The notes under the pieces: model-generated | What the model saw: the letters and a program-made list of their open reading frames with translations, nothing else | Told to the model about the DNA's origin: nothing | Databases searched by the model: none | Program-made: the position numbers and the translations under genes | Shown here: positions 9,686-58,744 of the stretch, one piece after another | How positions within the stretch are numbered: the stretch's first letter is position 1 | How the letters are laid out: every line of letters starts with the position of its first letter | Source of the DNA: Cyanidioschyzon merolae | Lineage: Eukaryota | NCBI GenBank assembly: GCA_000091205.1 | Contig: AP006488.2 | Length of the DNA: 64,000 nucleotides | Direction: 5' to 3' (one strand)

Positions 9686-10665
9686 CTGTGTCTCTTCCGG
9701 GCTCGATGTATGGGTTAGTCTCCTGAAACTAATCTTATAGAGTAGATCAGAATTCAGTATGCTTTTTTTGGCGGGTTCCTCGATCGTTCCAGGTGAGATG
9801 CGTTGGTCAAGCGCTGTGCTACGTATGAACGCTCTATGTATGCTATGCCTCTACCAAGATCACAGGATCCGGGAGAGTAGCGGGCACCATAACTTGGACA
9901 ACGACGATAGCATGGAAATGACTTGAACTGCCATCAGTTCCAGAACATGACGCAGGATAGAAGCACAATTCAGGTCAGTTCCTTATTCCAGCGTCCGTGC
10001 CGCATGCATAACAAGCACCGGGATTAAACGTATATCCGTGTTCAGCAATCCTACCGTGCCTTGTTTGTTTACGATCAATACAACTAACGAAACTCTTCAA
10101 GGCTAGAGTGATGCGTACCTTATCCACACAAGTGTAAGCCGCAGAGAACGCTACGCTTTTGATAGAAGCATCACGGGGTATCTCGCCAGGCCCCAACATC
10201 CCCTTGTACGTCAGGTCGGTACGGCGATGGGCGGTAGCGTCAGCACCACCGCCAGAGCCTATGCCAAGAGATCATTCTACGTGAGTTTCCAATCTACGAT
10301 ACTTTATTCCAGCTGCAGTGCGGTGCGAATACGCATATGCCAAGGCGGTGTCGGACACGTGTCCTTCATGGATCGGTGCAGCGTCTCGCGCGGTGCACGC
10401 ATCGCGCTCAGGGAGCACGCCTCGGAGATCAGGTAGTCAACTGACACGACGCGCATGCCGCCGTTGAAGGGAAACGCGATCCTAGTAACGAGCGTGTTGT
10501 TCTAACAGAAAAAGTTGGATTTCCGTTGGAGTCGAAGCAAAGTACAATTTTTCAGTTCATTTTTGTTTCAGCCCTCAAACAAGTCTAGTCAAGTGCTTTC
10601 TTGCAATACATAATAGAAGGGTTCGAAGCTGGTTCTTTTTCAAAAATACCTAAAAAAGAGGAGCT

Positions 10666-13166
10666 ATGAAAAAGCAAGTCCACGATCCTGAAGCGCCATT
10701 GTCGCCGGCTGCCAGAAAAACAAATACAGTGCCGAGTCCCGACGAAGAGCAAAAGAAAAAGAAGCAAAGGGGGAGGCCCTATGTCGATCGCGGCAAGAAA
10801 GACGACTGTACGACGAGATAGTGTTGAACGCCTGACTTCTTAAACATATCAAGGATCCCTACAGGGAAAAGTTGCGAGACGCTATCGAAAACCGTGTCGA
10901 CTCGTACTCCAAGAGTCTTTTCAAGGCTTCGTCAGGACTGATGCATTTGGCGAGGGAGATGTATCGCGACGTGACGGACATGGCAACCATCGAGATTCCG
11001 GACGAGTTCTTCGACAAGACCTTTATTCGTCACCTGATGCATGGTACAGCGGGAACGTGGAGGGAAAACGTGCTAGTGCATGTTCTCCACGAAAACTTCG
11101 CGGAATTCCGCTTCGAGGGTGCTCGGTACAGCGGTGACTCGCATATTTACACATACGGGGCAATGAAGTTCATCACGAACCTGAAGAACCATTTGACAGA
11201 GAACCTCGAATGTTTCATGATACGCACCGCGTTTGCACTCTACCCGGGCATCTCTCGCAAGGGGATATGGTCGATTATCAATGGCATCACGAACGATCGC
11301 AAGCATGAAGGTGAGGTCGAATTCGTCGGCAAGAAGACGTCAAAAGGGAGCACGAATGAAGCTTCTGCAACCCGTGCGGCTATACAAGAGCACCGTGCAG
11401 TCTTGGGGCTGGTGAATCCAACAGACAAGATATCAAAGTTGGAGAAAGATAAGGAAAGATACTATCGCCTCTTCCTGCGGCATTTTGTGTTTCTGGACCG
11501 AGAGCTCGAACGCAAAGTGGAGATGAAGCTGAGTGAAGAGACAAATGAAGAGTGGGAAAGACGGAAGGCTTTCCTAATGGGGAAGCGCTTCGACGTGGTT
11601 CCGTTGTGCAACATCAAGGCACATTTTGTGACTATCGACTCCGCGGTCCTTTACGGCATCATAAAGGAGATCAGTGCGGAGTTCAATATTCGTAGGGAGC
11701 ACTTCACCGGCGAAAACCAGGAGACGTACTGGAAGAAGATCTTCGGTTTCAAACGTCTCAAAACGAGCAAGCAAAAGGTATTCGCTGGGATGATTGAAAC
11801 CGATGGAGTAAACGTGTGTGTACACTATCGGCGGCTGAAGCAAGATCGTCCAGTCCCACTCCCCGCTGCGCCCTCGATGAAGCATGAAGATGAGAATGAG
11901 TCGGATCCTGCCACGCAGGAGGTAGAGGATACTGATCTTGTCGTTGGCGTGACGAACGATGAAGATGAGCAGGAGGCTGGTCCTGCGACGCAGGAGGTGG
12001 AGGATAACGAGCTTGCCGTTGACGCAGCGGAGCATGAAGAAAACCAAGAGGCGGGTCCTGCGACGCAGGCGGCGGAGGATAACGACTTTATCGTTGACGT
12101 GACGAAGGATGATCATGGGAAGGAAGCGGATCCTGTGATGCAGGAGGTGCATGATGACGCCTTTATGGTTGGCGCGGCGAAGCATGAAGAAAACAAGAAG
12201 GTGGGCCCTGCGACCCAGAAAGTGCAGGATAAGGACTTTGTCGTTGGCGCGGACCCTCGGAATACGAATATCATTACCATCGCAGCACCGAAGCGTGCGG
12301 AAGATGGTACTGATGGTAACTTACGTCAGAAAGACATGCGTCTTTTGAGGTTCACGAGAGAGAGATACTATCGAGAATCGGGAATCATGAATGCGAGGAA
12401 ACAATTCGAGACTTGGAAGTCAGGAATGAAAGATCACCTGGAAGCTTCGAGCTAGGTGACGAGCCGAGGAGCGCACTTTGAAGCTTTTCGGAAAGTCATG
12501 GAAGGTCGCATGACGCACTGGGATACGCTGTGGAAGGAGTATACCAAGCCCCGGTGGGCTCGTTTCCGAATGAATTTGTATTGTGGGAAGCAGCGGGCGG
12601 TGGCGAATTTTTTCAATCAGTTGAATGCCTTGATGGACGATAACAGTCAGAGGCTCGTAGTAGCGTATGGGGCAGGGCGCTGGAACACTCAAAAAGGAAC
12701 TTCGCCAGCTCCAACGACGAGGGTGTACAAGGAGTGCGCACGTCGTTTCGTTACAATACGGGTAGACGAGTTCCGAACGTCCTATACTCACCATGAGCTG
12801 GGTTGTACACTTCAGAGGGTGAAGATGGAAAAGTACCAGAAGAGCCCTGAGGAAATAGCAAAGTACGGACCGCTGACGGAAGAGCAAATGGAAAGGAGGG
12901 CGAAAGTTCGTGGACTACTCGCATTAGTAAGTACAACCAGTGATGGCAAGAAACGGATGGATTTCGTGAACCGAGAGTTTAATGCCGCAATCAATATAAG
13001 GAGATTGGCGGTGCTAGAGAAAAGACCTCCAGAGTGGACAAGAGAGAACTTTATTGGACAATCACTCAAAGTCGATTTATATGAGAAAGAATTGGAATCA
13101 GTAGTAGGTGACCGGTCCAAAAAGGCGGCGAGGCGTCTCCACGTCAGTTGGGGACGTTTTGTCTAG
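10666..13166 (+). pseudogene. TnpB/Fanzor-like nuclease ORF of copy 1, disrupted: frameshift and TGA near the N-terminus and an in-frame TAG at 12453..12455
   Basis: Two adjacent ORFs (10872..12455 and 12456..13166) lie in the same frame and are separated only by a TAG. The sibling copy has GAG at that position. The N-terminal exon-like ATG at 10666 is out of frame with the main ORF, and a TGA lies in the continuing frame. The RuvC-III 'NAAINI' motif is intact. Confidence 0.6.
11898..12257 (+). repeat. In-frame tandem array (5 x about 69-72 bp) duplicating the acidic '[14 protein letters not shown]' segment that ends in the RuvC-I motif
   Basis: The protein repeats are '[25 protein letters not shown]', '[25 protein letters not shown]', '[25 protein letters not shown]', '[26 protein letters not shown]' and '[19 protein letters not shown]'. 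Copies 3 and 5 carry a single unit. Confidence 0.7.
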
Positions 13167-14246
13167 GGCGCGGTTTTCCCGCCACTACTGTACACCGTTG
13201 GCGTCGTTCGACTTTCGAGCGGCGTTTGGTGTGGCCGTGCGCGGGAAGACGTCCATCATTCCATCTCCTTCCGAGTCTCAAAGCCCATGCTTCTTCTCGG
13301 ATATACTGGTCGTTTCGTATACTCTATCGAGTGACCGTGCATGCCTTGCCGCATCCGCTCCAGTAGTTTAAACGCTTGTGCGGGGTGTACAAAGTAGGTA
13401 TGGCGCACGATACAACGTACGCAACGACCAGCATATCAGAGAGGAATCACGAGGAATGCAACGATAAGGCAGGATGCATCACGATAGACGCTTTCCCGAA
13501 AGACAATATCCATCTACCCCGCAATCTGGGATCCATGGTCCATGGAAACGTGCTGCTACTGGAAAGAAAAACGAACGGGTGTGCGCGGCTGCCGTCTGTT
13601 CAACGTAGTTTCGTATTTCGTTCTTTTCTAGGTGGTGTAACGGAACTGTCTGCGGAAAATGACAGAGGAGTCCGCGGTGGAAGCTCGGCGTGTATCCTGC
13701 GAGGATTCCGAGCCCGAGGGATCGCCTTCGGCAGCCGCGCGGTCAGAGCAGGATACCGAGACGCCCGTCAGCACGAACGCCACAGGCACGCGACTCAACT
13801 GGAACACGCAGGCACCTGCAGTGACGAACGACGGCTGGCAAACAGCAGCGAGCGTATGCTCTAGTTCCGGTTCTGCGCTTGGTGAAGCGTTCACTCCAGA
13901 CGCTGCGCCTTCGCACGTAGGTACTGGAGCCGCAGCTCGTAGTGTTATGGCGACTGCCTCGGTTGAGAACAGTGTTCACTCCTTATCTGAGTCACCAATA
14001 AGCTGGAAAACACGCTTGAATGACCTTTAGGAGCGTCTCCTTCCCTGGATTCCCGAGCGAATGGCTTCCTTTTTCTACCGTCAGGCAACGCGCTGGCTGC
14101 CGACTCTCGTGCAGCGACTTCGATCAGCCTACGCCAAATCGCTTGAACCCATGGACGCTGTCGTTCATCTCTACAGGGGCATTGTTCCGACTTTTGATCA
14201 TCTTCCCGCAGAGGGCCGGGCGCCAACACAGATTCTCGCCGACCTG

Positions 14247-14477
14247 GATCGGGTGGAGCATATCTCGAGTCGATGCGCCCAGTGGTATCGCAAAGCCATT
14301 CTCTCAATCGGTACTGCGTCGGCACAGGCGGTACAGGCGACATTCTTGGCGCTCACGCAAGGCACCGCGCATGATGGTGTGTGGGGACCGACTAGAATCA
14401 CCGAGCTGAAGAATGGGTAACAGAATTCGAAGGCTGTTGGAGCGATGGACGGTTTCCCGATCGCTGACCTCAAGCGC
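14247..14477 (+). repeat. Dispersed direct repeat, copy a (231 bp); it forms the 3' end of a 119-aa ORF (14061..14420)
   Basis: Near-identical to 18724..18954 ('gggtggagcatatctcgagtcga...ccgagctgaagaatgggtaacagaattcgaaggctgttggagcgatggacggtttcccgatcgctgacctcaagcgc'). The shared peptide is 'RVEHISSR.AQWYRKAIL.IG.AS.QAVQATFLALT.GTAHD.VWG.TRITELKNG*'. Confidence 0.7.
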
Positions 14478-14884
14478 TCCAGTTTTGATTCCATGTCAAC
14501 GTATTCGGTCTGTCGACCAAGAAAACTAGGCGACGCTGTCCAGTTACATACATATAAATTCATTAATATCCATATAAATTCCATATCTCTGTTTGCAATC
14601 AGGGACGTCGAGACTTTCCGCTGCCATGTTCGGGAGAAATGTCCGCTTTCAGCAGCCGAGATAACGAGATCGCTAGATGATTTTTGCAACGTGGCCCTGT
14701 TCCCAACCGCAGGTTTTTTGAAGTCGGATCACTACTGGAGCGCCGCAGCCGCCGGCGTTGCAGAACACTGACGCGCGCTTCGTTGAATGCTCGTTGACCA
14801 CGTCCACTGATACACGAACCTGAATACAAGCTTCGATACGATACATACTGAGCGGCTTACGAGTCATAACTTCATACCTCCAAA

Positions 14885-15560
14885 ACATGTCTACAACCCC
14901 TACTCGTGACGATAAGGATATTGTGGGAAAACGCTACGGTCTAGCTTGCCTGTCCTATCGTAAGCTACCACCTGTCGAAGGCGAGTACCCTGAAGGTGCT
15001 GCGCGGCTGGTGCTCTGTTGCATCAAGATCACCACCAAGGGAGACTCGCGTGCGTTTACCAAGTACCCATACACGGTGGATAATGGGTGGGTATGTTGTT
15101 GTGATTGGTGCGCTGCTTAAGAAATTTAGGCGGGGAGAGCACTTATACAACTATAGAAAAATCAAGTGCGTTCGGGGCTCTAGTGCGTTTCCACTTCAGA
15201 GCTTCTTTCTTCGAACACCGGCGCTACTGCTGCCGACGAGCCGGACGTTTTCCTCTGGAACGCGAAGCTTGAGCGGACTCCTCGAGGACTGCAGTGTCGT
15301 GGACTGGAAGTGATGATGTGCTCGTGTAGGAGTGGTATCCAACGCAGCGAAGTTCTTCGTTCAGCCGCGTCGCTCTAGCCTCATGCTATGCGGTGCGATT
15401 GTGACACTGCTTGACTGTGCCCTGCCCCAAGCGCTGAAGATTGCGTTCCCGCTCTGCACAGTTGGGGGCAGGACACCTGCACGAACTTGTTCCGCCCTCA
15501 CCGAAGGTCGTTTGCGTACTGGAAATGGAAAGTGAAGGATAGCTAGTGTCTGTATGCGGC
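14885..15560 (+). repeat. Inverted repeat pair, copy 1 (about 670 bp), carrying a conserved 77-aa Cys-rich small ORF (14887..15120)
   Basis: ORFs 14887..15120, 14996..15313 and 15332..15535 each have near-identical counterparts on the opposite strand at 22619..22852, 22426..22659 and 22204..22407. Confidence 0.7.
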
Positions 15561-16552
15561 AGACTACGTGTGACAGTTAAGCTGCATTCAGGAGGCCAGG
15601 GAGAGCCGCAAACATAAAAAAGACACAATGAGAAACAGACTGAAACGATTTGTCCTAAAACAACTGTCCTAAACCTTCCACACAGATCCCACATAAGAAT
15701 TCCGTTTTTCGGGATACACATTAAATGTGCCAAACAAAGCGGAAGGTTTCGGGTAACGTGAGAAGGAGCCCCACGACCGGGTCTTTGACAAATACGAACG
15801 TAGGGGTGGAACCAGTAGCACCATATGATGGTGAGATATTTGAGCAGACACCTGTCTGTCTTGAATCAACTCTGCAGGCACTGGCGCGAACCCTGGATCT
15901 AACCTCGAACTCGAGCTCAGGTTTACCTCCTACTTTAGTTTTTTCTTCAACTTTGGGGAAGTCTCGGCGGAGGTTTTGGAAGACGGCAGGCAGGTTGTTC
16001 GCGGTCGAAGGTGGAATAAGCGACTTACCCGCCTACATGTTTGGGGAGCGGATCCGAAGCCGTTGAAAGGGTCGTTAGTAGACTATATCCCGAGTGGTCG
16101 AGGGTTGCATCACGCGCCACGCAGCGTAACGGCCGCTTTCGAATCGACCCCGCCAGCTCGACTCCTAACACTGCGCTACCACTGCGGCAAGCACTCAATG
16201 AACGACTGGAGTGTAGAAGGCACTGGTGGCATGTGCGCTCACACACTCCGTGGCGGGTGCGTCTAAATCGACGGCACAACTCTGGAGCACCGCAACGCTA
16301 TTCCTAATCAATGACGAGCTACCACTCGATAGGTTTCGCATCGTGGAACATTTGCGGGACAGCCGCGAGACTGGACGATGCAAGGCACTTCCGGGAGCGC
16401 TGAGACGCCCATAGCCTGGCGTTGCGGGAGACACTACGCTCAGAGAACACAAATGCCTATAATAGTCTGCACATCCCAGGCTACAACAACGTTTGAACCT
16501 ACATACGCAGGCCCTACGGACAAGTTAACTTATTTATTTATGCACAGGTGGA

Positions 16553-18473: not shown

Positions 18474-18723
18474 CAGGAAGGATTTCGGAGCCGTGAATCG
18501 GATGCGCACATGGGACCAGAGTTATGTTGACCTACCCACTGGAGGGTACCGGGCAGAGGCCAGCGCCTCGAATCGAAAACATACTCTACACAAGTTTGCG
18601 AAAGTCAGACTCGGGCTTTAGGATGTATCCCAGCAGCCACTGCTCTCCAAATCCTCGTATCGCGAACGCAAGCCAAAATATGCACACTGGCCGAGCGCCA
18701 ACCGCTTGCCAAACACGACCTTG

Positions 18724-18954
18724 CATCGGGTGGAGCATATCTCGAGTCGACGCGCCCAGTGGTATCGCAAAGCCATTCTCACAATCGGTAGTGCGTCGGT
18801 ACAGGCGGTACAGGCAACATTCTTGGCGCTCACGCCAGGCACCGCGCATGATGTTGTGTGGGGAACGACTAGAATCACCGAGCTGAAGAATGGGTAACAG
18901 AATTCGAAGGCTGTTGGAGCGATGGACGGTTTCCCGATCGCTGACCTCAAGCGC
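18724..18954 (+). repeat. Dispersed direct repeat, copy b (231 bp; 3' fragment of the 14061..14420 ORF)
   Basis: See 14247..14477. ORF 18706..18897 ends with the same 'ITELKNG*'. Confidence 0.7.
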
Positions 18955-21172: not shown

Positions 21173-22165
21173 TTGTCGTTGGCGCGGACCCGGAAACTCA
21201 AATATCGTTACCGTCGCAGTACCCAAGCGTGTGGCAGATGGTACTAACGGCACCTTACATCAGACAGACATGTGTCTTTTGAGGTTCTCGAGAGCAAGAT
21301 ACGATCGAGAATCCGGTATGATCAATGCAAGGAAGAAAATTGAGACATGGAATGCAGGAATGAAGGATCACCTGCAAGCTTTGAGCGAGGTGAGGAGCCG
21401 AGGAGCGGACTTTACAGATTTTCGGGAATTCATGGAAGTTCGCGTTGCTCATTGGGACGCGCTGTGGGAGGATTATACAAAGCCCAGGTGGGCTCGTTTG
21501 CGAATGAATCTGTACTGTGGGAAGCAGCGGGCGTTCGCCAACTTTTTCAATCAGGTGGGCGCCCTCAAGGAGATTGAAAGTCAGAGGCTCGTCGTAGCGT
21601 ACGGAGCAACGCGCTGGAAGACCCAAAAACGGGACTATGCCAGCTCCAACGACAAGAACGTACAAGGAGTGTGCACGGCGTTTCGCTGCGATACCTGCAG
21701 ATGAGTTTCGAACATCGTATACACACCACGAGCTGGGATTTACACTTCAGAGAGTCGAGATGGAAACGTGCCAACGAAGCCATGAGGAAATAGCAAACTA
21801 CGGACCGCTGATGGGAGAGCAAATGGATAAGAGAGCGAAAGTTCGTGGACTACTTGCGCTGGTGAGCGCAACCAAAGATGACAAGAAACGTATGGTATTA
21901 GTGAACCGAGACTTTAACGCCGCTACGAATGTAAAGAGATGTACGGTGACAGATAGAAGACCTCCAGAGTCGACAAGAGAGAACTTTGTTAGACAATCAC
22001 TCAAAGTGGAACTATATGAGAAACAGTTGGAAGCAGTTGTAGGTGACCGGTCCAAAAGGCTGGGAGGCGTCTGCACGTCAGCTGGGGATTTCTTGTCTAG
22101 GGCGGGCTTCTCGCCACTACTGTACACCGCTGGCGACAACGTTTTGCTTTTGAAAGGCGTTTTGT
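21173..22165 (+). mobile_element. Fanzor/TnpB-like element copy 2 (family A; 5'-truncated, begins at the RuvC-I 'VVGADP' segment; frameshifted)
   Basis: Homology begins at 'gttgtcgttggcgcggaccc'. ORFs 21141..21704 and 21637..22353 lie in different frames, with the same +1 insertion as copies 3 and 4. The 'VNRDFNAATNVKR' RuvC-III-like motif and the conserved 3' end are present. Confidence 0.7.
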
Positions 22166-22194
22166 TTCAGGGGTTTTTGCAGTATACAGACACT

Positions 22195-22860: not shown

Positions 22861-25800
22861 AGTAGCAGATAATGATTCTGAGGCAAAGGTCGTGAAGTAG
22901 CGAGCGAAGCTTGTATTCAGGTTCTTGTATCAGTGAACCTCAACAACGAGTATTCAACGGGGCGCGCGTCAGCACTCAGCACCGTCGGCGACTGCCGCGT
23001 TCCACTGATGATGCGTCTTCAAAACACCGGCGAGAGCGTGTAGGCTGCCACGTTGCACACGCCGTAGCGCGCCTCTCGCCATGTCGTCATCTCGCCTGTT
23101 GCTGTAGGCGGACCCTGCGTCCCTAGCACGAAAGCGGAACGTCCCACCGTGATAGCCCACAAAGATCTAGTACTTTTTGGTATATTAATATATTAAATTG
23201 TACGTTATGAGTTCGCGCCTGTGGCGATCCCCGCAGCCTGTTCGCGAGGACTCTCAGTTGTAGGTACCCATGGCATCCTATCCTTATGTCAGATTAAAGT
23301 GGAGAACTCAGCTGCTCGCGCAGTTCCTGCCTTGAGATTTTTCCGCAATGGTTTTAGATCTCCAGTCTGTAGAAGCAAAGTGCAACAGTGCGGGCTCATG
23401 GAATGGGAAGCAGCTGCAGGAATCACGGACGCGCAACCGGAGTGGCTTTGTAGACCCTCTGCCGCTGGCATTCGTCACGTCACCGTCATTTGAATGATGC
23501 GCGGCACCCGCGAGCAAGGATTCATCACATAAAAGGCATCTTCTTCCACGACATGCGTACAAGCCTCTGCGCTTCTCATATTCCTTAGTGTGGCGTGCAC
23601 GAATCACTCGCATGCGCCAAGGTTCGATGCCTCTGTTTCAAGGCGACACTCGGGTGCAGCACTTCATGTCGTTGGATGGACGACGAAAAAAACCTGGGTT
23701 GAGGCCGTGACGACTCGTTCACAGACTCTCGCTGAAACGTCACGCAGCTTATCACTGCAAACAAGCAGTTTCGCTCGGGAAGCAATGCCACCTCTATGTG
23801 GGGCTATCGACGGAGCGGCACTCATTGGCAGTATGGTGCAGTTCCCGGAACATGCGCTCAGAGGCGCCCGTCTCTTTTCTGCGCATGGAAAGGGGTCCTC
23901 GACCCGGGCTTTACTCATCGCTGCGATGACTTTGAGTAGAGCGTGCGTCACTGCTTTGCGCGAAGTGAGCGAAGACAGATCGAGAGTTCACGACGTGCAC
24001 GCCGGACTGGGAGGTTCGTTGCGATACCTGTTCCTGTCTGGAGAGCATCGCCTTCGACGAGTCGTCTAGAGAAGGGAGCAGCATGCGCAGGCGTGTGTTG
24101 AGGGGAGCGCTCTCGCCGAGGCGATCGCCCAGCAGAAGCCCGTGAGCGTAGGTTACGGCAGCTGGTGCGAGAACGGAGCAGGGCACTGAGGTGAGGCTTC
24201 TGGACCCGCCACACACAGTTACGGAGCGTCGACGCGAGCGTTCACGTGTCAGCGACTAGCCGTCAGATGACGAAGTATGCTGGTGGCACGTGACCGCCAG
24301 ACCACAGCCAAGCGGCAACGCTGCGACGGGCGCACCGCAACAGAGTGGAAAGAAGGTGCACATGGCAAGCGAAGCGAAGATGGCAACTTTTGGCAGTGCA
24401 TGGAATGCCTAGACAAGAGTCGGCAGCTATGGAATCGGGGCCTGAACACCACCACCGCCAATATCGTGCGACTGCTATGAACAGCGCTGGAGAGAAAGGA
24501 GAGACCAGCGTCGTTTAAAGAAGCCGAAATATTAGTGCATACGTCTTTGTCCGTGGATCTGTTCAGTTCTATGTAACTCGAACGCACCTGTCAGTGGAAC
24601 AAAAACGTCCCACGACCATGTCGTATACATGAATATCTACCCGCAGACGCCTCCCTGCCATGCTGGACCGCGCCCTGCTGTCGGCTCCAGCTTCTTGTTG
24701 TATACGGAGACCCTGAGAGACTGCCCCGCAAGTCAGATCGCGTCAGTTCCTCGGGTAAAGTCTTTCGCTCTGCACATTATCTGATAATGATGGCGACGTT
24801 GAGGTCTCGGTCAACGAACTCGTTGCATTTATTGCCGATGGTGGAACCTCGCTTTGCGAAGACGCATCGAACTCGTGCTCTCTGTGCCACCAGAGTTTCG
24901 TAAACGTACCGTCGAGCAAACACCTTTTCCTGGCTATCTCTCATCGTCATCGTCTTCGTTGTCCTCATCTGTTGCTCCTCTTCGATTGGTGGTCAGCGGG
25001 AAGAGGATTTTTTCATTTTGTTTGTCGAACTCGGCAATGATGGTCCTCCGGTATCCTCGACTTTCACGTCCATACCATTGCATTCTATTTTTTTGAGAAC
25101 GAACGCACTTGGAACGCATCTGCTGTTAACCGCGAAAAACCACTTGAATACTATACGAGGCTATTGGAACACGAATGCATTGAAAGACTAGACCTTGCTG
25201 CCACTTCAACCCTAACACGTCTTGTCCGTTAGAGCGACACGTTCATGATCAGGATCGCGTTTCCCTTCAACGGCGAGATGTGCGTCGTGTCTTGTTCTTT
25301 TTCTGGTCTGAGAAAACCTATCCATCGACCGTGGATCACGGATTGCGGGATGGATATCGGCTTTCGGGAAAGCGCCCGTCATGGTGCACCCTGCCTCCAG
25401 GTTCCATTACTTAGACTCCCTTTCCGCTAGACTGGTCGATTTGTGCGTTCGTTCGTGCGCCGAGCCTGCAGTGAGCACCCGCCGCAGCGCTTGTACCGCT
25501 GGAGCGGATGCTGCACAGGGACAGAACAGCGTAGGCGTACCACCGAATGCGCTGCGACCAGGGCGACGCCCAGACGCTGCCTGAGCACCCTTAATGCCGG
25601 AATAAACCGCTTCGGGGATGAGTTGGTCAGATATCACTAAAGCACCTGCCATTGGGTGGGGGAAGCATGACGCAATTACCCAGAAGACTCGTCCGGCTCA
25701 CGGGGCCTTCCGCCTGGAGCGCAAACATTCTAACATGCGGAAAGCTTCTCCCCCTGTCAACGTTTAGCGTAGAGGGGGAATGAAATCGTTACATCGTTTG

Positions 25801-25929
25801 TCGTGAATCGTGAGTCTCTGTTCTTTGTTCTAAATAACGCTGTCGAGTTGTGCACCTCCATATTTGAAAGGCATGAAATACAATGCGCTTTTCACAGTGG
25901 AAGAGAAACGTAGTCCTGACCATTCGTTG

Positions 25930-28350
25930 ACGTGTTGTTCTACCGGAAAAAGTTGTATTCGCGTTGGAGTCGAAGCAAAGTACAATTTTTCAGTTCATTT
26001 GTGTTTCAGCCCTCAAACATGTCTAGTCGAGTGTTTTCTTGCAATATATAATAGAAGGATTCGAAGCTGGTTCTTTTTCAAAAAAAATAAAAAAAGGAAA
26101 GTCATAGGAAAGCAAGTCGGCGATCCTGGAGGCCCAGGATCGCCGGCTGCCAGAAAAACAAATACAGTGCCGAGTCCGGACGAACAGCAAAAGAAAAAGA
26201 AGCAAAATGTGAGGCCCTACGTCGAAGGCTGCAAGAACGACAACTGTACAACGAGATAGTGGTGAAAACCTCTCTTCTTGGACATATCAAGGATCCCTAT
26301 AGGGAAAAGTTGCGAGGCGCTATCGAAAACCGTGTCGACTCGTAACCCAAGAGTTTTGTCAAGGCGTCTTCCGGACTGATGCATTTGGCGAGGGAGATGT
26401 ACAAATACGTGACGCACATGGAAACGGTCGACATTCCGGACGAGTTCTTCGACAAGACGTCTTTTCGATACCTGATGCATGGTACAGCGGAAACGTGGAG
26501 GGAAAATGTGCTAGTGCATGCTCTTTACGAAAAATTCGTGGAATTCCGATTCGAGGGTGCTTGGTACAGGGGTGACTCGCATATTTACACATACGGGGCA
26601 ATGAAGTTCATCACGAACCTGAAGAACCATTTGACAGAGAACCTCGAATGTTTCATGATACGCACCGCGTTTGCACTCAACCCGGGCATCTCTCGCAAGG
26701 GGATATGGTCGATTATCAATGGCATCACGAAAGATCGCCAGCATGAAGATGACGTCGAATTTGTCGACAAGAAGACGTCAAAAGGGAGCACGAATGAGGC
26801 TTCTGTAACCCGTGCGGCTATACAAGAGCACCGTGCAGTCTTGAGGCTGGTGAATCCAACAGACAAGATATCAAAGTTGGAAAAAGATAAGGAAAGATAC
26901 TATCGCCTCTTCCTGCGGTATTTTGTGTTTCTGGACCGAGAGCTCGAACGCAAAGCGGAGATGAAGCTGAGTGAGGAAAAATGAAGAATGGGAAAGACGG
27001 AAGGCTTTCCTAATGGGGAAGCGCTTGGACGTGGTTCCGTTGTGCAACATCAAGTCACATTTTGTGACTATCGACTCCAGATCCCTCACGACATCACGAA
27101 GGAGATCAGTGCGGAGTTCAATATTAGTCGCGAGGACTTCACCGGCGAAAACCAGGAGACGTACTGGAAGAAAATCTTCGGTTTCAAACGTCTCAAAACG
27201 AGCAAGCAAAAGGTATTCGCTGGGATGATTGAAACCAATGGAGTAGCCGTGTGTGTACACTATCGGCGGTTGAAGAAAGATCGTCGAGTCCCACCCCCCG
27301 CTGCGCCCTCGACGAAGCATGAAGATGAGAATGAGTCGGATCCCGCCACGCAGGAGGTGGAGGATACTGATCTTGTCGTTGGCGCGGACCCCGGACACAT
27401 CATTATCATCAACATCGCAGCACGGAAGCGTGTGGCAGATGGTACTAACGGCACCTTACATCAGACAGACATATGTCTTTTGAGGTTCTCGAGAGCAAGA
27501 TACGATCGAGAATCCGGTATGATCAATGCAAGGAAGAAAATTGAGACATGGAATGCAGGAATGAAGGATCACCTGCAAGCTTTGAGCGAGGTGAGGAGCC
27601 GAAGAGCGGACTTTACAGCTTTTCGGAATTTCATGGAAGTTCGCGTTGCTCATTGGGACGCGCTGTGGGAGGATTATACAAAGCCCAGGTGGGCTCGTTT
27701 GCGAATGAATCTATACTGTGGGAAGCAGCGGGCGTTCGCCAACTTTTTCAATCAGGTGGGCGCCCTCAAGGAGATTGAAAGTCAGAGGCTCGTCATAGCG
27801 TACGGAGCAACGCGCTGGAAGACCCAAAAACGGGACTATGCCAGCTCCAACGACAAGAACGTACAAGGAGTGTGCACGGCGTTTCGCTGCGATACCTGCA
27901 GATGAGTTTCGAACATCGTATACACACCACGAGCTGGGATTTACACTTCAGAGAGTCGAGATGGAAACGTGCCAACGAAGCCATGAGGAAATAGCAAACT
28001 ACGGACCGCTGATGGGAGAGCAAATGGATAAGAGAGCGAAAGTTCGTGGACTACTTGCGCTGGTGAGCGCAACCAGTGATGGCAAGAAACGTATGGTATT
28101 AGTGAACCGAGACTTTAACGCCGCTACCAATGTAAAGAGATGGACGGTGACAGAAAGAAGACCTCCAGAGTCGACAAGAGAGAACTTTGTTAGACAATCA
28201 CTCAAAGTGGAACTATATGAGAAACAGTTGGAAGCAGTTGTAGGTGACCGGTCCGAAAAGGCTGGGAGGCGTCTGCACGTCAGGTGGAGACGTCGTGTCT
28301 AGGGCGTGTTTGCCACTACTGTACACCGCTGGCCGCAGCATTTTTCTTTT
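25930..28350 (+). mobile_element. Fanzor/TnpB-like element copy 3 (full-length mosaic: family-B-like 5' half plus family-A 3' half; multiple frameshifts)
   Basis: The 5' end is 'cgtgttgttctaccggaaaaagttg', followed by a TATA 'tatataatag' and then the MHLAREMY... N-terminal half, about 90% identical to copy 1. The RuvC half is near-identical to copies 2 and 4 ('[32 protein letters not shown]...'). ORFs 26379..26984, 26988..27905 and 27838..28302 lie in three frames. Confidence 0.7.
26045..26054 (+). promoter_or_regulatory. TATA-box-like sequence (TATATAATAG) upstream of the element-internal ATG
   Basis: Read directly in the sequence. The equivalent position in copy 1 reads 'cataatag', about 50 bp before 'atgaaaaag'. 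Confidence 0.3.
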
Positions 28351-35607: not shown

Positions 35608-35805
35608 CAATACGGACACTACCAGGTGTGTCGGGGTTCGTGTCCCATACTCATTCTCTGCGACAAGACGAACACTACCAGGTGTCTCGGGGTTCGTGTC
35701 CCATACTCATTTTCTGCGACAAGACGAACACTACCAAGCGTCTCAAGGTTCGTGTCCCATACTCGTTGTCTAGAACAATACGGACACTACCAAACGCCTC
35801 AGGGC
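35608..35805. repeat. Minisatellite, about 55-bp unit x about 3.5 ('acactaccaggtgtStcggggttcgtgtcccatactcattYtctgcgacaagacga')
   Basis: Tandem units read directly in the sequence. The units diverge progressively toward the 3' end. Confidence 0.75.
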
Positions 35806-42749: not shown

Positions 42750-42769
42750 CCTCGGAGACACGCACATTG

Positions 42770-43563
42770 CTACCAGAGGAAAGACGCAATCTCGAAATCA
42801 CTGGCGGAGCAGCCTGCGCACCTGTGTCGAGAAGCCAGCTCCATGCAGGACAAACGTAACAAGCGCATTACCGTATGGGACTGTTTGCAGCATCGTCGGA
42901 CGTGTCCCTGGAGCACTGTAGGAACTGGAATCCGTGTACGCAGAAATATTGAACGATGGAAAGTCGTGATTTTCGAACATTTGCCCCGGAAAGTTGTTCT
43001 CGGTGTGTGAATGGATGTGGCGCTTGAGCCTTTCGTGATCGCGGGCCATACTGTGCCAAAAACTTGCTCCAGGCGAGGTTCTAATGCCGCCTTGCCTGGC
43101 CATTGGTATTGTTCCATCGGGAGTTTTCCACACTTCTTCACAATGCCCGTGCTGAATCCTAAAGGATTTCTTTGAGGAATCGCTCGACACGAGGACGTTG
43201 GACCCACCGGAAGCGCCAGGCATTTCCAGATGTTGATCGCTTCGTTCAAGCCTCGGTGTGCATAGTGCCTACGCGTATTGTTGCACGTGAAATCACCCCA
43301 TACCGAAAAGCAAGCATGTGGCCTTCGATTGCCTCGCCACCCGACGATCGCCCAACTTACAGTACACAATCACGTGCATGCTTCTCCGTTTCACTCGCAT
43401 CATTTACGGACCGATATCGATGTGGTCCTGTACTCGTGATACGTATACGTTGTTCCGAACTCACGGATGGAAATCGTACCGGATCGATTCCTGCACTCGT
43501 TACAGGCGCGACTCGAAGGAGCAAGAATGCGGCCCCTGAACTGAGCAGAATGTACAGCGCCAT
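42770..43563 (-). other. Fragmented ORFs (three frames) with a signal-peptide start and metallophosphoesterase-like histidine motifs; a possible pseudogene or intron-containing gene
   Basis: 43357..43563 (-) reads 'MALYILLSSGAAFLLLRVAPVTSAG...'. 42798..43223 (-) reads '...FWHSMARDHERLKRHIHSHTENNF...FVLHGAGFS'. 42770..43369 (-) reads '...VWGDFTCNNTRRHYAHRG...'. There is no continuous frame. Confidence 0.2.
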
Positions 43564-46237
43564 TGAGTATCACGAAACGACGCGACCTGTCGGTCAGTTC
43601 CTTTATGTTTTGCAGAAGTTTGCAAATGCATATCCATTGCCTCCGCACAGCAGCAACCGTTGGCGAAGCCAGCGCGGTGGCAGGTACTCCTGCCTAGAAT
43701 CGCATGCATGAAATGTTCGAACGCTAACGTGCGCTCTGAATGGTGTATCCGAACCACCCCCGGTGCTCGATACGGTTGCCAGAACCTCGAAACGGCTCCT
43801 GGTGCCGTCAATCAACTTGTTGGTATGACTATTGGCGTCCATAAAACCCGATTCTCGACGCCACCTAGCCCTAGAAAATATGAACAGATCGACCAGCATA
43901 ACATTCCGATTTTTGACTCCGTCCTTTTCACTTAGACGTCTGGCGACGGTGTTCGTAGTTCCTCAACCCGGGATCGACATCAAGGACCAAGTCTTGTTCT
44001 TCTTGTGCATTGAGCAATTTAAAGAACGTCGTGCTGTTAGACTCAGGACTAGGCCTCACGAAGCGCATGCAGACCGATATTCCGGCCGTTTCTATGATCC
44101 CTGTACACTTCTGTCCATTTCCCCGTGCAGACGAGAAGCCTGGAACGACCTCCGCCAGTGCTCTTCGTGAAGGTGTTCGATTCGCTCGCACATGCTCGCA
44201 GAGACCAGCCGTTCCCCATTATGGAGGCTATTCAATACAGAAGAATATTGTCTAGGGTGATGTCAAGGCGCTTGATGTGACACTCGGGGATCGCATCGAC
44301 CAGAAGCTTGAGGAGGCAAGGACGCCCGACTAGAGGAGCGAGCCTGCTATGCTCTGGAGCGCTCTATTCAGGAGCACTTGGTCCCGCACGATGGGCAGAA
44401 GAAAGGCATCCCGTTTCATTCGTTCTTTGGATACGACGTGCGTCGGTGCGGGGCAGAGAGCGACATGAAGCGCATAAACGAACCGAACCAAAGCTCGCAC
44501 TCGTTGCGACTCGGCTGCCGAAGGCGCCACAATATCAATCTTTTCCGTAACCGCCGGCTCGTCATTTGCCTTTGCCAACATCCCAAGAATACCTTCCGTA
44601 GGTAACATTTTTTGTATTCCAGTCATCTGAAGCCACAGTGGCTGCAATGCCTACGGTGTGCGCATCATGAGTCGCTCGCGATTGATCCGCATCTGGTTTA
44701 CAATACTGGCTTGATATTTTATGACATCCGCGCTGTAGACTTTTTTGAACGTCTGAGATGGCTCGGCAACGTCTCAAGGTACTCTGGGAAGCGTGTGTGT
44801 GCAAATCGCCGATCCCATGATCACGCTGTGTGTCACGTTCTATACAGAGCCTCAGCTATGGGGTCGCACGAAGGTTTGATCGAAATTTTCCGGGAAAATG
44901 AGTACGGCCAGCAGGCCGCTGCTTCCGAAGCTCTCACAAACTGTTGAACGATTAGGTACGTCGAGACGCGGGATGCCCAGCTTGCCGTGTGCGAACAGGG
45001 AGCTGCACGACCCTTACTGCAGTCCTTATACTAACTTTAGGAAGATTATTTCCGTCGACGTGGTTGAATAGAGAGGATTTGAAAATGGTTCAGGACTGAT
45101 GTTCCGCTCGGATCGTTTGCTTTCTGTTTTTCGTGGACCTCTGTTCCAATGGATCTTTCTCTTTTTTGGCCTGGGGTGAGTTGGCCTCCAACTCGACCAG
45201 GTGATCTTGGGCAGGGATATATTCGCTATGCACCATATCTCTAGTTTACGTTGGATTCAGACGCACTGGCTGCGCGCTGGGACTGAAACTTGCATTTCCT
45301 TCAAACGCATCTGCTATTCTCGCAGTGCTTTTTGGTTAGCTTCTTCGTCGCGAGCACACCAACGAACCGAAGCGCACCTTTGCGCTCCCTTCCGCGCTCG
45401 AGCAGCGGCGCGAAGCAGCAGTTCAGTGCTCGTGAACCTCGATTATGATTCATTGAAGACCGGTGACACGGATTCGAGTGGCCCCTCGGTTAGTATATCA
45501 GCCTGAGAATGACGTTCACGAATGATGCAGACGCCTTCGACCCGACTGATCCAGGGATATGAGCTGCCGCGAAGCGCAACACAACGCCAATCCCAGCTGG
45601 ATACCCCCAGACTTGTTTATCGCGATGAAGAGCGACACTTTCTAACAGCAGGCCAGAATCATCTGCGAAGGAGCAGCCACGAAGCGTGCTCCCACGAAGG
45701 ATGCGTTCTTGAAAGATCCTATCCGTTTGGTGATTTGTCGGCGATCACGTGACTGAATCGTAGCTCAGGCTGATGTTGTTCGAATGCTCGCTTGTGTCTT
45801 CTTTGGGAACAATGGTAGTAGTTCCAGTAGAAAATATGGAGCAAAAATTGATTGACAAGAAGACAGTGGTGTAGATACATTCAAAAAAGCTCAGGTTTGA
45901 GCGTATGCCATGCAGGGTACGGACCAAAAGACGGAGCAAAACATACGCACCTGCACACCGTGAATCATTGTCTTGTCGTACTTCACGAGCTAGCTGTTCT
46001 ACCAGAGAATCTGCACGTGACCCGCGTCCAGTCTAAAGGACGCATTCCTTTTGTTGAATACATATGAACCAGGCAAACAAAAACAAAAACGGCAGGCTGG
46101 TACATGTATTCCAGCATTCGCTCCTCTGAATATCGCGACCGGCGCTGGTGACATGATCACCTTCGCTCAACCGTGGGGCCTATATAGGAGGGCGCTTCTC
46201 GAATGCGGTTTATGGAGGAAACTGCATAGAGATAGAC

Positions 46238-46332
46238 GCATACACGCAAACACGCAAACACGCAAACACGCACACACGCACGCACACACGCAAACACGCA
46301 CACACGCATACACGCACACACGCACACGCATG
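46238..46332. repeat. Compound microsatellite (CACGCAAA / CACGCACA)n
   Basis: 'acgcatacacgcaaacacgcaaacacgcaaacacgcacacacgcacgcacacacgcaaacacgcacacacgcatacacgcacacacgcacacgca'. Confidence 0.85.
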
Positions 46333-53390: not shown

Positions 53391-54269
53391 AGAAAGTACA
53401 AAGAGTTGATTGGTAACTGCTATGCCGCTCCAAACTCACTCAGGTGCGTTATGGGGTACACTACGTAAACGAGTCGGTATGCGAGCGAACAACAGCGCGA
53501 GCGACTCAGTTTTCTCGATGCCAAAACGTTTAGATTGACCAAAGATCCCAGATTGCGGGATGCGTATTGATGATCGAAAAAGCGTCCACCATGCTGCAGC
53601 ACCCTACCTCCAAGTTCTATTTTTCGCACTTCCTTTCAGATATACTGGTTATTTCTTAGGTTCTGATTTGCACCTAACATGCCATGAGCACCCGTCCTGG
53701 CGCATATACCGCTGGTGCAGATGCATCACGGAGACGGAAAAGCTTTTCCAGCACCACCACTGAGGGCGTCGAATCGAGGAACGCTTCACCTGGTACGGAT
53801 TCGCAGTACATAGTCATGCTGAAGGCCTGCGAGCAGCGCAGACAGACCTACAGCCTGCGGCAGCGAGAAGCGGCATGCCAGGTGTCCACCGCGAACAGGG
53901 CGACGCTCAGAGGCGTCATACCCGCTGCGAGCTCCTGAATGAACTGCGTTGCGGACAAACTGCTCACATCTCACTACAGCATCCGTCAATTGCGGGGGCG
54001 GGAGGCGGGTATGCAGCGCTAGCCCGGGAGACTCGTTCAGCTCGCGGGACCTTCCGCTAGTACAGTGAACTTTTGACAATATGGAAACTTGTTCCCCATG
54101 TAACGTTTCTTGTGGTGGTGAAAAGAGATTCTAGTCTCGTTGCTATCTAGTGGTTAGTTTCTGTTCTTCTCTCTATAGAGCGGTCCGTACGTGCTCTCCG
54201 ATATCAGGAAGGTACGAAACGCGACGCGCATCTCGCCGTTACACATCAACGCTATCCTGATGATTAGCG

Positions 54270-56740
54270 TGTTTCTCTATCGTACAAGATGTGTTTCGGT
54301 TGAAGCCATAGCAAATTATCGTCTTTCGATTCAGCTGTGCTCCAGCCCTAGCATTAGCGTTTTCAAGTGCTTTTTCGTGGTTTATAGCAGAAGCGTTCGT
54401 AGCGGGTTCGTTTTCAAAAATAAAAAAAGAAAAGCCATGGGGAAGGAAATGGAGGATCCGGTAGGCTCGGCGCCGCCGATCGCCGAAAACAAAAACTAAA
54501 AACACTGCCAAGCCCAGAGGATCAAGACAAGGCGAATATGAAGAAATGGGAGGCTCGACCTCAAAAGCGACACAAAAGGCGACAGTACGACGAGAATGTA
54601 GTGAAAGCATTTCTTCTACTCAAGACCAAGAATCCCTACAAGCAGGAGTTGCGAAAGGCCATCAGAAACCGTGTCGCGTCGTACTCCATCAGTATCATTA
54701 AGGCTTCTTCAGGACTGATGCATAAGGTGAGCGAGACGTATCGCGACATCACGGACAGCAGAACAGTCGAGGTTCCGGGAGAATTCTTCAGCGAGGCCTT
54801 CATCAAGCACCTGCTACGTGGCACAGGGGAAACTTCGAGGAGAAATGAGCGAGTGTATGCCCTCCAGGAAAATTATATCGTCTAACGCTTGAACGGTACG
54901 ATATAAAGGTGAGCTCGAATTTTTACATCTACGGGGCGGTGAAGTACACCACGAATCTGAAGAAACATTTGAGCATGAACCTAAAACGCTTCACGAAACG
55001 CTGCATCATATTTAAATCTACGGGGCGATGAAGTACACCACGAATATGAGGAACCATTTGACCATGAACCTCAAACGCATCATGAAACGCTCCATCTTTG
55101 CGCTGTACCCGGACCTCTCACACAAAGGGAAATGGGCCACCATGAGTAGCATCACGAACGATCGACAGCATGAACAGGAGATCGAATTCGCCGGTGAGGA
55201 GGCATCGCCCAGTACCATGAATGAAGCTCCTGTGGTCCGTGCGGCTGTCCAAGAGCACCGCGGAGGTCTGGGGCTGGCCAATCCAGAAGAAAAGGTATCA
55301 GAGATGGAAAAAGATGCTATCCCCTGAACCTGCGGTATTTCGTGTTTTTGGAACGAAGAACTCGAACGCAAGGCGCATATGGATCTGGGCATGGAGGTAT
55401 GTTGAGAGTCTTTGAAACGGATGGCTGGGCTTCTGGAGAAGCGCTTCAACGTCGTTCCGTTATGAAAGATCATGTCGTACTGTGTCACAATCGATTCCAG
55501 AGTCCTTCATGGCATCATGAGGAAGATTTGTTCGTAGTTCGATTCAGGCAGGGAGAGGTTCACCGGCGAAACCGGGAGACTTGTCGGAAGAATATCTTTG
55601 ATTTCAAATGTCTTAAAAGGAGCACAAAAAATGTATTCAGGGGTACGATTGGGAGCGATGGACTACCCATACGTTTGCACTATCGGCGCTTGATGGCGGA
55701 TCGTACGACGCAGGAGGTGCAGAAGAACGACTTTGTCGTTGACGTGGATTCTGCGAAATCGAATGTCAAGACCACCGCAGCACCCAAGTGTGCGCAAGAT
55801 GGTATCGACGGCAACTTATGCCAGAAAGGCATGTGTCTTATAACGTTCGCGAGAGCGAGACACTAACGAGAATCAGGAATCATGAACATGAGGAAAAAAA
55901 GTGAGACTTCGAATACAGATGTGAAGAAGCACCTGGAAGTGATCAGCCAGGCCACTTGCCATGGAGCGGACTTGCAAGCCTCTGTAGCGTTCATGAAAAT
56001 TCGAGCTGCTCATAACGAGTTGCTGTGGGAAAAGTACTCAATGACCCGGCGAGTTCGCCAGCGTCTCAACCTGCACTACGGAAAGCAGCACGCACTTGCC
56101 AATTTCCTCCATGAGGTGAGCGCCCTCACGGAGTACATGAGTCTAAGCCTCCTAGCAGCATACGTAGCATGGCGCTTGGCCTTCCAAAAAAGGGATCATA
56201 CGCTCTCCATCGACGAGAGCGTACCAGGCGTGCGCACAGCGCGTTGTCACAATACCGATGGATGAGTTCCGAACGTCATGAATACAGCATGAGCTGGGAA
56301 GTACACTTCAGAGGGTCAAGACGGAATAGTGCCAGCGGAGCCCTGAGGATATTGAAAAAGCATGGAGCGCCGACAGAACAGGAAATGGCACGGAGGGCAA
56401 AAGTTCGAGGAATCCTTGCATTAGTGAGTGCAAGCGACAGCAAGAAACTGATGGAGTTTGCGAACCGGGACTTTAACGCCGCTATCAATATCAGACGATG
56501 TGCCGTGCCTGAGACGAGCGCCGAAGAGCTGAGACGATCCAACTTCATGGGCAGCCCCTCAAGGCGGATTTGTCGAAGAAGAAGTCGAAACCGATAGTAG
56601 GTGGCCGGTCGCAATAAGCCGGGAGGCGTCTGCACGTGGGCGGCCAGACATATGGTCTATGGCGAGCGGAGCCTAGCGCGCTGCTCGCCACCACCGTACA
56701 CCGCGTGCAAACCTGCGCCGCTCGCAAGGCGTTCGTTGTT
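54270..56740 (+). mobile_element. Fanzor/TnpB-like element copy 5 (divergent family C; several frameshifts and stops)
   Basis: The 5' end 'agcgtgtttctcta...' and the N-terminal region 'MKKWEARPQKRHKRRQYDENVVKAFLLLKTKNPYKQELRKAIRNRVASYS...SSGLMH' are colinear with copies 1 and 3. The segment 'FVVDVDSAKSN' occupies the RuvC-I-like position. 'FANRDFNAAINIRRCA' is RuvC-III. The related 3' end is '...cgtctgcacgtggg...gccaccaccgtacaccgcg'. Confidence 0.55.
54927..55100 (+). repeat. Internal tandem duplication (2 x about 88 bp) within element copy 5
   Basis: 'atctacggggcggtgaagtacaccacgaatctgaagaaacatttgagcatgaacctaaaacgcttcacgaaacgc...' is repeated immediately as 'atctacggggcgatgaagtacaccacgaatatgaggaaccatttgaccatgaacctcaaacgcatcatgaaacgc...'. 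Confidence 0.5.
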
Positions 56741-58742: not shown

Positions 58743-58744
58743 CA

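Follow-up and report, generated by a model that had tools for sequence, protein, structure and literature searches.

The 64 kb at the left end of chromosome 6 of Cyanidioschyzon merolae 10D (64,000 nucleotides of contig AP006488.2; hereafter, the window) contain five dispersed copies and one solo 3′ end of a repeat whose disrupted open reading frames (ORFs) had been read, from the letters alone, as remnants of a TnpB/Fanzor-like RuvC nuclease. Fanzor1 proteins are the eukaryotic branch of the TnpB/Cas12 superfamily, single-RuvC endonucleases guided to DNA by RNA from the element's own 3′ end. We find that the repeats are, almost certainly, degraded members of CMe-1A, an element known from C. 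merolae whose product is the Fanzor1 protein CMe-1. A publication of 2013 already reported this element together with its consensus, copy number and Fanzor1 protein and its lack of terminal inverted repeats (TIRs) and target-site duplications (TSDs), and the present finding is a rediscovery.

The window repeats match CMe-1A

CMe-1A is the sole Fanzor1 family that Bao and Jurka list for C. merolae (2013, Mobile DNA 4:12; PMC3627910). They describe an element of ~3 kb and unknown class, present in ~150 copies per genome that are each ~80% identical to the consensus, with no TIRs, with undetermined TSDs and with some copies still intact; its 5′ 635 bp are common to TE-N2_CMe. The consensus is 3169 bp long and encodes CMe-1, a 734-residue protein in a single exon (supplement of PMC3627910), which was classified as Fanzor1 in the same work.

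Every copy in the window maps to this consensus, at 77–88% nucleotide identity. At the protein level, the identities to CMe-1 in tblastn are 72–83% for copy A, 66–86% for copy B and 42–62% for copy C, and the reconstructed protein of copy A is 76–83% identical to CMe-1 in blastp. The CMe-1A element has the ends CGATGACAAAACG... and ...GAAAGGCGTTTG. We searched the copy junctions for direct repeats of at least 8 nt as possible TSDs and found none, and neither the self-comparison of the window nor the consensus mapping of the copies revealed a terminal inverted match. The window copies and CMe-1A thus share family, host, single-exon gene and the lack of TIRs and TSDs, and nothing essential sets them apart. 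Among the details that differ, the published consensus ends with ...GAAAGGCG, whereas sequence conservation and a terminal stem (H3, described below) extend ~10–14 nt beyond it; and all the window copies are dead, unlike the published family with its intact members.

The existence of five plus-strand copies and a solo 3′ end, as originally predicted, was confirmed by blastn of copy A against the window, by self-comparison, by a repeat search and by the consensus mapping. A 17-nt signature near the 3′ end (GCCACYACYGTRCACYG) occurs six times in the window, always on the plus strand, against 0.15 occurrences expected by chance. Most of the predicted coordinates remain nearly the same, but two starts lie 620–750 bp further upstream: copy B begins at 25309 rather than 25930, and copy C at 53516 rather than 54270. 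Two decayed relics on the minus strand had been overlooked. The copies and fragments are as follows (H1, H2, H3 and the 17-mer are parts of the 3′ module described below).

9578–9683, plus strand: solo 3′ module, comprising only H1-H2, the 17-mer and H3 and starting right after TTTT; 9578–9673 maps to consensus 3073–3168 at 84% identity.
10427–13235, plus strand: copy A, 5′-truncated, consensus 671–3169; 10427–13203 maps to consensus 671–3145 at 84–87%; the RuvC-III Asp is changed to Glu (REFNAAINI).
13242–13551, one fragment direct and one inverted: pieces of the CMe-1A 5′ region downstream of copy A, TE-N2_CMe-like, consensus ~11–205.
21173–22171, plus strand: copy t21, only the 3′ 1 kb, starting at the edge of a minisatellite unit; 21173–22159 maps to consensus 2182–3169 at 88%.
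24636–25295, minus strand: internally deleted relic, head-to-head with copy B; consensus 683–937, and a C-terminal piece with 38% identity to residues 640–724 of CMe-1.
25309–28371, plus strand: copy B, full-length; 25309–28358 maps to consensus 4–3169 with an internal deletion of 241–365, at 81–84% (84% over most of the length).
31727–32717, plus strand: copy t31, only the 3′ 1 kb; 31727–32705 maps to consensus 2189–3169 at 88%.
~43127–44926, minus strand: heavily decayed relic of a second Fanzor1-like family, 22–43% identical in amino acids to members of the clade described below (tblastn E down to 8e-20), with many stops.
53516–56730, plus strand: copy C, full-length and the oldest; 53516–56637 maps to consensus 1–3088 at 77–80%.

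The three tiers of identity among the copies that had been described as families A, B and C are roughly reproduced by the self-comparison. In its 3′ part, copy B is 98% identical to t31 and 95% identical to t21 at the nucleotide level; A and B are 91% identical in the 5′ half and 81% identical in the 3′ half; and copy C is 66–72% identical to the others. The relic at 43127–44926 represents a distant second Fanzor1-like family in a genome for which Bao and Jurka list one. A head-to-head pair like that formed by the relic at 24636–25295 and copy B is also present in a metagenome locus, L121.

CMe-1 is related to fungal Fanzor1 nucleases

Membership of the protein in the TnpB/Fanzor group, which the original prediction had proposed from motifs, is borne out and can be narrowed to Fanzor1 by profile matches, by Foldseek and by the published classification of CMe-1. 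Six-frame translation recovered all the motifs on which the proposal had been based: VVGADPG in copy B; DEFRTSY in A, B, t21 and t31, decayed in C; LVVAYGAGRW in A; LLAAYVAWRL in C; and, for RuvC-III, REFNAAINI in A, RDFNAATNV in B, t21 and t31, and RDFNAAINI in C. A database search yielded 59 relatives, most of them from hot-spring metagenomes and 54–81% identical, with distant ones in the green algae Tetrabaena and Haematococcus; the family alignment for the profiles was built from the window ORFs and the database matches. In an hmmsearch of PDB sequences, a family profile of seven diverse members detected PpFz1 of Parasitella (4.5e-12) and SpuFz1 of Spizellomyces (1.8e-11), and GtFz1 weakly. 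The profile alignments are collinear through iDPgr/iDPnk, vDEFRTS/lDEYKTS, vRGLL/vHGLL and NRDlNaA/NRDMLST. The family profile was needed for this detection, as a single-sequence phmmer search against the PDB also placed SpuFz1 first, but with an E value of only 2.3.

We also predicted the structure of a 752-residue relative, P0001, with AlphaFold2. When the model was compared with the PDB by Foldseek, ranks 1–7 were all Fanzor1 chains (SpuFz, PpFz and GtFz; E 7e-9 to 6e-6), followed by Cas12 proteins.

The active fungal proteins SpuFz1 and PpFz1 (8GKH, 9CEU–9CF3) are collinear with CMe-1 from the REC domain to the C-terminus. They share with it a DPG motif in RuvC-I, an alternative Glu within D-E-[FY]-[RK]-T-S, the motif (V/C)-(H/R)-G-L-L and N-R-D in RuvC-III, although the sequence identity is only ~13%. 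The elements differ as well: that of SpuFz1 is 2.1 kb long and has 30–33-bp inverted repeats and TA duplications, whereas CMe-1A has neither. ISDra2 TnpB of the IS200/IS605 group resembles CMe-1 in having a single split RuvC domain, and in both systems the guide RNA is expected to overlap the 3′ end of the gene, at the right end of the element. It differs in its canonical RuvC-II Glu, its D-hydrophobic-G motif in RuvC-I, its zinc finger, its length of ~400 residues and its partner transposase TnpA. We looked in the family for the canonical TnpB signature, RuvC-II Glu with D-hydrophobic-G, and found DPG with the alternative Glu instead.

Several results count against the Fanzor1 assignment. Neither Pfam-A nor NCBIfam gave a significant match, whether scanned with the reconstructed protein, with halves of the ORF or with the relatives; the best was PF07282 (OrfB_Zn_ribbon) with an E value of 0.23, and CMe-1 lacks the C4 zinc finger that this family represents between RuvC-II and RuvC-III. 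The only precomputed label is a weak match to PF26935, a domain of unknown function (DUF8286). As evidence for a RuvC (RNase H-like) fold with REC-WED-RuvC-NUC architecture, the AlphaFold2 model is of low confidence, with a pLDDT of 59 and a pTM of 0.38, and the TM-scores of its Foldseek matches are low, at ~0.3.

The RuvC-II glutamate is relocated

The original prediction noted that no glutamate is present at the expected RuvC-II position and concluded that the protein is either a non-canonical or an ancestrally inactive nuclease. The observation is correct for the canonical position, which reads VVAYGAG, but the conclusion is not supported. The Glu of DEFRTS is invariant, lies 33 residues downstream of the canonical site and aligns with E541 of SpuFz1, within the sequence 'DEYKTS'. 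In the HMMER alignments, in which the positions were counted, the Asp residues of DPG and NRD align with SpuFz1 D383 and D606, respectively, and the Glu of DEFRTS with E541; these three SpuFz1 residues coordinate the two Mg2+ ions in the cryo-EM structure (PMC10432273).

Such relocation has been described for all Fanzors and a subset of TnpB proteins, in which the canonical RuvC-II Glu is replaced with Gly or Pro and a compensating Glu is found further downstream; the alternative Glu was essential for cleavage in ApmFNuc, the sole Fanzor mutated by Jiang et al. (PMC10530073). Yoon et al. (2023) regard DPG together with the alternative Glu as the Fanzor signature (PMC10711439). As the arrangement of VVAYGAG and DEFRTS is this published Fanzor pattern, the inference of a dead or non-canonical active site fails for the family.

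The first Asp occurs as GADPG in the consensus, in copy B and in the relatives, and as GADPR in copy A; a DPG-like motif is present in 135 of 145 newly retrieved representatives of the clade. RDFNAA is found in the consensus and in copies B, C, t21 and t31, and is mutated to REFNAA in copy A. Judged from these alignments, the CMe-1 family keeps the predicted Fanzor catalytic set (D-E-D), and single copies such as A are damaged in it.

That the whole family is a non-canonical or ancestrally inactive nuclease is therefore highly unlikely. This explanation draws on the lack of a Glu at the VVAYGAG position, on the loss of the zinc-finger ligands in CMe-1 and, mostly, across the clade (see below), and on the literature, from which we know of no biochemical test of a finger-less clade member. 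It has to contend with the invariant Glu at the rearranged position that all active Fanzors use, with the conservation of D, E and D across the aligned members, and with ratios of nonsynonymous to synonymous substitution rates (dN/dS) of 0.4–0.5, which point to past purifying selection.

The zinc finger has degenerated across a large clade

The second anomaly that had been noted, the absence of the CxxC...CxxC finger, is real, yet it is clade-wide and not peculiar to the window copies. The four ligand positions are occupied by H, L, L and T/S in CMe-1, compared with C-P-R-C ... C-T-N-P-N-C in SpuFz1; PpFz1 likewise retains the CCCC finger. The C4 finger is part of the motif by which Bao and Jurka define Fanzors, and they call it strictly conserved, although CMe-1, which they included, is without it (PMC3627910); Yoon et al. 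ascribe the finger to 'many', not all, members (PMC10711439). Since the original authors filed CMe-1 as Fanzor1, we treat the zinc finger as frequent, not obligatory, in Fanzor1.

An exhaustive profile search retrieved 4669 representatives of 50%-identity clusters at E <1e-3, including 573 at E <1e-30, most of them full-length at ~600 residues. Among the 115 top matches that could be parsed, the first-site CxxC is found in 9 and the third Cys is kept in 85, while 91 have no Cys in the five following residues, where the fourth ligand would lie. The finger is kept in the five CRe proteins of Chlamydomonas and lost in VCa-1 and VCa-2 of Volvox. The Volvox proteins, TSOC_005131 and TSOC_011071 of Tetrabaena, and the members of PF26935 (DUF8286) belong with CMe-1 to the same finger-degenerate Fanzor1 clade, with the common pattern DEFRT[ST]-x-[IV]-HH-x-DD...VRGLLWC-x-ST...FVNRD-x-N-[AG]-A. 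Their alignments with the window protein span more than 90% of the length of the latter and show 29–38% identity. Their hosts are green algae or come from metagenomes, and most of them keep the third Cys (LLWC), which CMe-1 has lost. On this comparative evidence, the finger has degenerated across a large clade in which D-E-D is still conserved, and its loss does not reflect local decay; the cleavage activity of the clade is a prediction.

Lesions, shared history and selection

As had been predicted, all the copies in the window are disrupted: each has stops or frameshifts relative to the consensus. In copy A we found a 1-bp deletion at ~10766, TGA at 10833 and TAG at 12453, in agreement with the lesions reported for it (the TAG, and a TGA and frameshift near 10800). 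Copy B has 1-bp deletions at ~26208 and ~27082, a 1-bp insertion at ~27831 and two lesions that had been described slightly differently: the TAA occupies 26343–26345 (given as 26344), and what was taken for a 1-bp deletion near 26985 is a 2-bp deletion at ~26977. Copy C contains 8 stops and more than 10 frameshifting indels, and t21 and t31 have 3 frameshifting indels each. The ORF of copy C also contains an 89-bp tandem duplication (54922–55096).

Some lesions are shared. A 1-bp insertion at consensus position 2640 is common to B, t21 and t31, and a 3-bp and a 1-bp deletion near consensus 961–1013 are common to A and B. Frameshifts common to several copies imply that copies multiplied after inactivation. 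The disabled copies may have been mobilised in trans, or they may have been duplicated when subtelomeric sequences recombined or underwent gene conversion at a 75-bp minisatellite. This minisatellite is expanded in copy A.

11879–12246, plus strand: minisatellite of copy A, 4.9 units of 75 bp, a 300-bp in-frame expansion that adds ~100 acidic residues just upstream of RuvC-I.

The unit, which encodes 25 residues of acidic character, is present once in the consensus and in copy B, ~5 times in A and 3–6 times in the metagenome relatives P0001, P0006 and P0010. Copy B is a chimera of a 5′ half like A (91%) and a 3′ half like t31 (98%), and its switch point lies at the edge of a minisatellite unit, as do the 5′ starts of t21 (consensus 2182) and t31 (consensus 2189).

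Copy A and the solo end are also old. The locus around them (8656–10599, with part of the adjacent gene for a short-chain dehydrogenase) has collinear counterparts in metagenome contigs from hot springs, with 98.7% identity in L085 and 80–84% identity in L003, L065, L081 and L108. The insertion of copy A and the solo end thus predates the divergence of related Cyanidioschyzon lineages. We had considered the pattern of a solo end, ~750 bp and a full copy, which recurs in metagenome loci, as a larger composite element, but rejected it; the pattern recurs because the entire locus is orthologous between related strains or species.

Nei-Gojobori dN/dS values against the consensus are 0.38–0.50 for every copy, meaning that most of the divergence arose in lineages that still coded for protein. 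This estimate argues that CMe-1 was functional and under purifying selection while the family diversified, and it agrees with the remark of Bao and Jurka that the coding capacity of CMe-1A has been kept for an unusually long time (PMC3627910). A point against the overall CMe-1A reading is that the 64-kb window contains no intact copy; intact copies in the genome are known from PMC3627910 only.

A conserved, hairpin-rich 3′ module

All the copies that reach the 3′ end of the element share a conserved module, which in copy A is located as follows.

13113–13235, plus strand: 3′ module of copy A, overlapping the last codons and the stop codon (13164–13166); H1 (GGCGTCT...GGGACGT), H2 (GGCG..CGCC), the 17-mer GCCACTACTGTACACCG and the terminal hairpin H3.

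For a broader comparison we aligned the 3′ ends of the window copies with those of verified metagenome loci, 42 distinct sequences in all; chance matches of the metagenome pattern scan, such as those in gut and soil contigs, were removed by blastn against copy B. The conserved module starts at GGAGGCGTCT, inside the last codons, and is ~105–125 nt long. It consists of H1 (GGCGTCT / AGACGTC), H2 (GGCG / CGCC), the invariant 17-mer and H3, a terminal helix of 12–19 bp rich in G-U pairs. Homology stops after H3, which ends 0–12 nt from the 3′ boundary. When the helices were specified by hand in 17 sequences, 90% of the cells could pair, as compared with 37–57% in slid controls. H3 is more stable in the sense than in the antisense orientation (-18.6 versus -12.5 kcal/mol; mean z -1.7; Wilcoxon 2.5e-7, for sequences that are non-independent). 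In copy A, the only copy in the window with a strong H3, it folds at -26.3 kcal/mol (z = -2.5).

These features fit a guide-RNA (omega/fRNA) scaffold candidate or the right end of the element; in the former case, the module of 105–125 nt would be the guide-RNA scaffold of CMe-1. Two points weaken the RNA interpretation. Covariation in the module is not significant, with 3 pairs changed on both sides, a number reached by 181 of 500 shuffles; and many of the compared sequences are orthologous loci, not independent copies. RNAalifold on a MAFFT alignment of 36 3′ ends returned only 4 pairs, because two indel variants shift the register of the hairpin. A scan of the window with the Rfam gathering thresholds gave no match.

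How the copies may have spread

The 5′ junctions of full-length copies have a feature in common: at nine distinct junctions, a T/C-rich run directly precedes CGATG, and the solo end follows TTTT. The run could be a target preference or a preference for a target-adjacent motif (TAM), or else an unrecognised part of the element; as a TAM, the T/C-rich 5′ flank would be the target motif. Runs such as TTTTCT, TTTTTT, TCTCTTT and TCCCCC are found at 53486–53515, 25279–25308 and 13552–13581 in the window and in loci L034, L043, L047, L055, L081 and L121.

It is plausible, if just short of probable, that segmental duplication or gene conversion within the subtelomere, and not transposition, gave rise to t21, t31 and the 3′ half of B. 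The three sequences are mutually 95–98% identical within 11.5 kb and carry the common 1-bp insertion at consensus 2640. Moreover, the starts of t21 and t31, both at the minisatellite edge, are no more than 7 bp apart, and B switches there from A-like to t31-like. On the other hand, there is no flanking homology with t21 or t31, so that the duplicated unit is the element fragment itself, as a mobilised truncated copy would give, and the 3′ boundaries of t21, t31 and B coincide with the family's own 3′ end.

We consider it unlikely, to a clearly greater degree, that CMe-1A is a non-autonomous, one-ended rolling-circle element of the Helitron2 type, mobilised in trans by Rep/Hel like CRe-1, CRe-2 and CRe-3. 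The comparison is with a family of similar design, as these elements of Chlamydomonas reinhardtii (CrFNuc) also carry an algal Fanzor1 as the sole gene of a multi-copy non-autonomous element. Both groups show frequent 5′ truncation with an intact 3′ end (here t21, t31, the solo end and many metagenome loci), a 3′ hairpin, which is H3 at the extreme end of CMe-1A, a T-rich upstream junction and a conserved 3′ non-coding RNA region, which in CMe-1A is a candidate. CRe elements and Helitron-1N insert after TTTT (PMC3627910), reminiscent of the T/C-rich runs and of the TTTT before the solo end; neither TIRs nor TSDs are found for CMe-1A; and an automated annotation assigns 24% of the transposable elements (TEs) of C. 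merolae to helitrons (bioRxiv 10.1101/2022.10.24.513474).

The CRe elements differ, however, in that they keep CxxC...CxxC, have 5–10 exons, have ends matching a known autonomous Helitron and often show variable TSDs. For CMe-1A no Rep/Hel partner is known, and the 10 large window ORFs that we scanned contain no Rep/Hel domain. Of the structural features of Helitron2, CMe-1A has the 3′ subterminal hairpin (H3), but we found neither the 5′ hairpin nor the short asymmetric terminal inverted repeats. The only 5′/3′ asymmetric inverted match in the consensus is one of 9 nt, GACAAAACG at the 5′ end and CGTTTTGTC upstream of H2; we rejected it as a Helitron2 repeat, since neither copy C nor L034 preserves it and it is probably due to chance. 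H3 contains many G-U pairs, which speaks for a hairpin formed in RNA and not in DNA; t21 and t31 could have arisen by local duplication and need not represent separate truncation events; and Bao and Jurka, who defined Helitron2, left CMe-1A unclassified (PMC3627910).

C. merolae has highly efficient homologous recombination. That CMe-1A spreads by Fanzor alone, through RNA-guided cleavage followed by copying by homologous recombination without a transposase, is nevertheless very improbable: a transposase, TIRs and TSDs are indeed absent, the coding capacity has been maintained for long in a supposedly 'non-autonomous' family (the argument of Bao and Jurka, PMC3627910, and the dN/dS of 0.4–0.5) and the conserved 3′ module abuts the flank, but TnpB homing restores the element at the donor site and, as the guide is derived from the flank, leaves new insertion sites unexplained, and dead copies with shared frameshifts still multiplied.

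Genomic setting

The window is the left subtelomere of chromosome 6. Nine of its ATG-to-stop ORFs match exactly the C. merolae 10D proteins BAM79404–BAM79417 (CMF014C, CMF016C and CMF026C among them), which are encoded on one chromosome of 536,163 bp. The first letters of the window are CCCCATTCCCCCCATTCCCCCCATTCC, the complement of AATGGGGGG, the telomere unit of C. merolae.

1–27, no strand assigned: telomere repeat (CCCCCCATT)n, read directly.

With ~150 copies of CMe-1A in the C. merolae genome of ~16.5 Mb, ~0.6 copies would be expected in 64 kb, against the five copies and additional fragments found in the window. The excess agrees with the reported concentration of TEs in the subtelomeres of C. 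merolae, which are marked by H3K27me3 (bioRxiv 10.1101/2022.10.24.513474). Derepression of subtelomeric TEs is seen in Cme(z) PRC2 mutants. All six CMe-1A 3′ modules (9578–56730) are on the plus strand with their 3′ ends facing away from the telomere, and only old relics are on the minus strand (post-hoc p ~0.03).

The host genes in the window are long ORFs without introns, and the 10 large ORFs that were scanned include those for a Kelch-Hint protein, PPDK, a DHHC palmitoyltransferase and TruB. The Kelch-Hint gene (3340–5520, minus strand) is free of introns, combines Kelch repeats with a Hint module (hedgehog-type autoprocessing), is annotated as 'similar to hedgehog protein' and has a paralogue, BAM81404, on another chromosome. 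Dispersed repeats other than CMe-1A comprise an inverted pair of 1 kb (14546–15561 and 23205–22178, 83% identity) and a pair of 240 bp (14240–14477 and 18716–18954, 96%). Tandem repeats are located at 35606–35792 (3.3 units of 56 bp), 46236–46327 ((ACGCACAC)n) and 58740–58870 (2 units of 66 bp).

Implications

The 'missing' glutamate, which had made the protein appear unusual, was already explained in the literature of 2023, and what value the finding retains comes from the finger-less clade and from the use of CMe-1A to examine what Fanzor does for an element without a transposase. The clade that Pfam labels DUF8286 is related to Fanzor1, so that the DUF label could be resolved, and the degeneration of the finger throughout so huge a clade is of specialist interest. 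The conserved 3′ module provides a concrete guide-RNA candidate. In the most far-reaching version, which we regard as quite improbable, CMe-1A, as a member of a very large finger-less Fanzor1 clade with D-E-D under selection, may propagate by RNA-guided nuclease and host homologous recombination alone, with the 3′ module, which is also kept as a solo unit across related strains, as the guide-RNA gene. CMe-1A is a long-lived 'non-autonomous' Fanzor element with clear signs of past purifying selection and no known transposase, and it resides in a genetically tractable, intron-poor host; it is therefore a reasonable system in which to study the role of Fanzor in a transposon.

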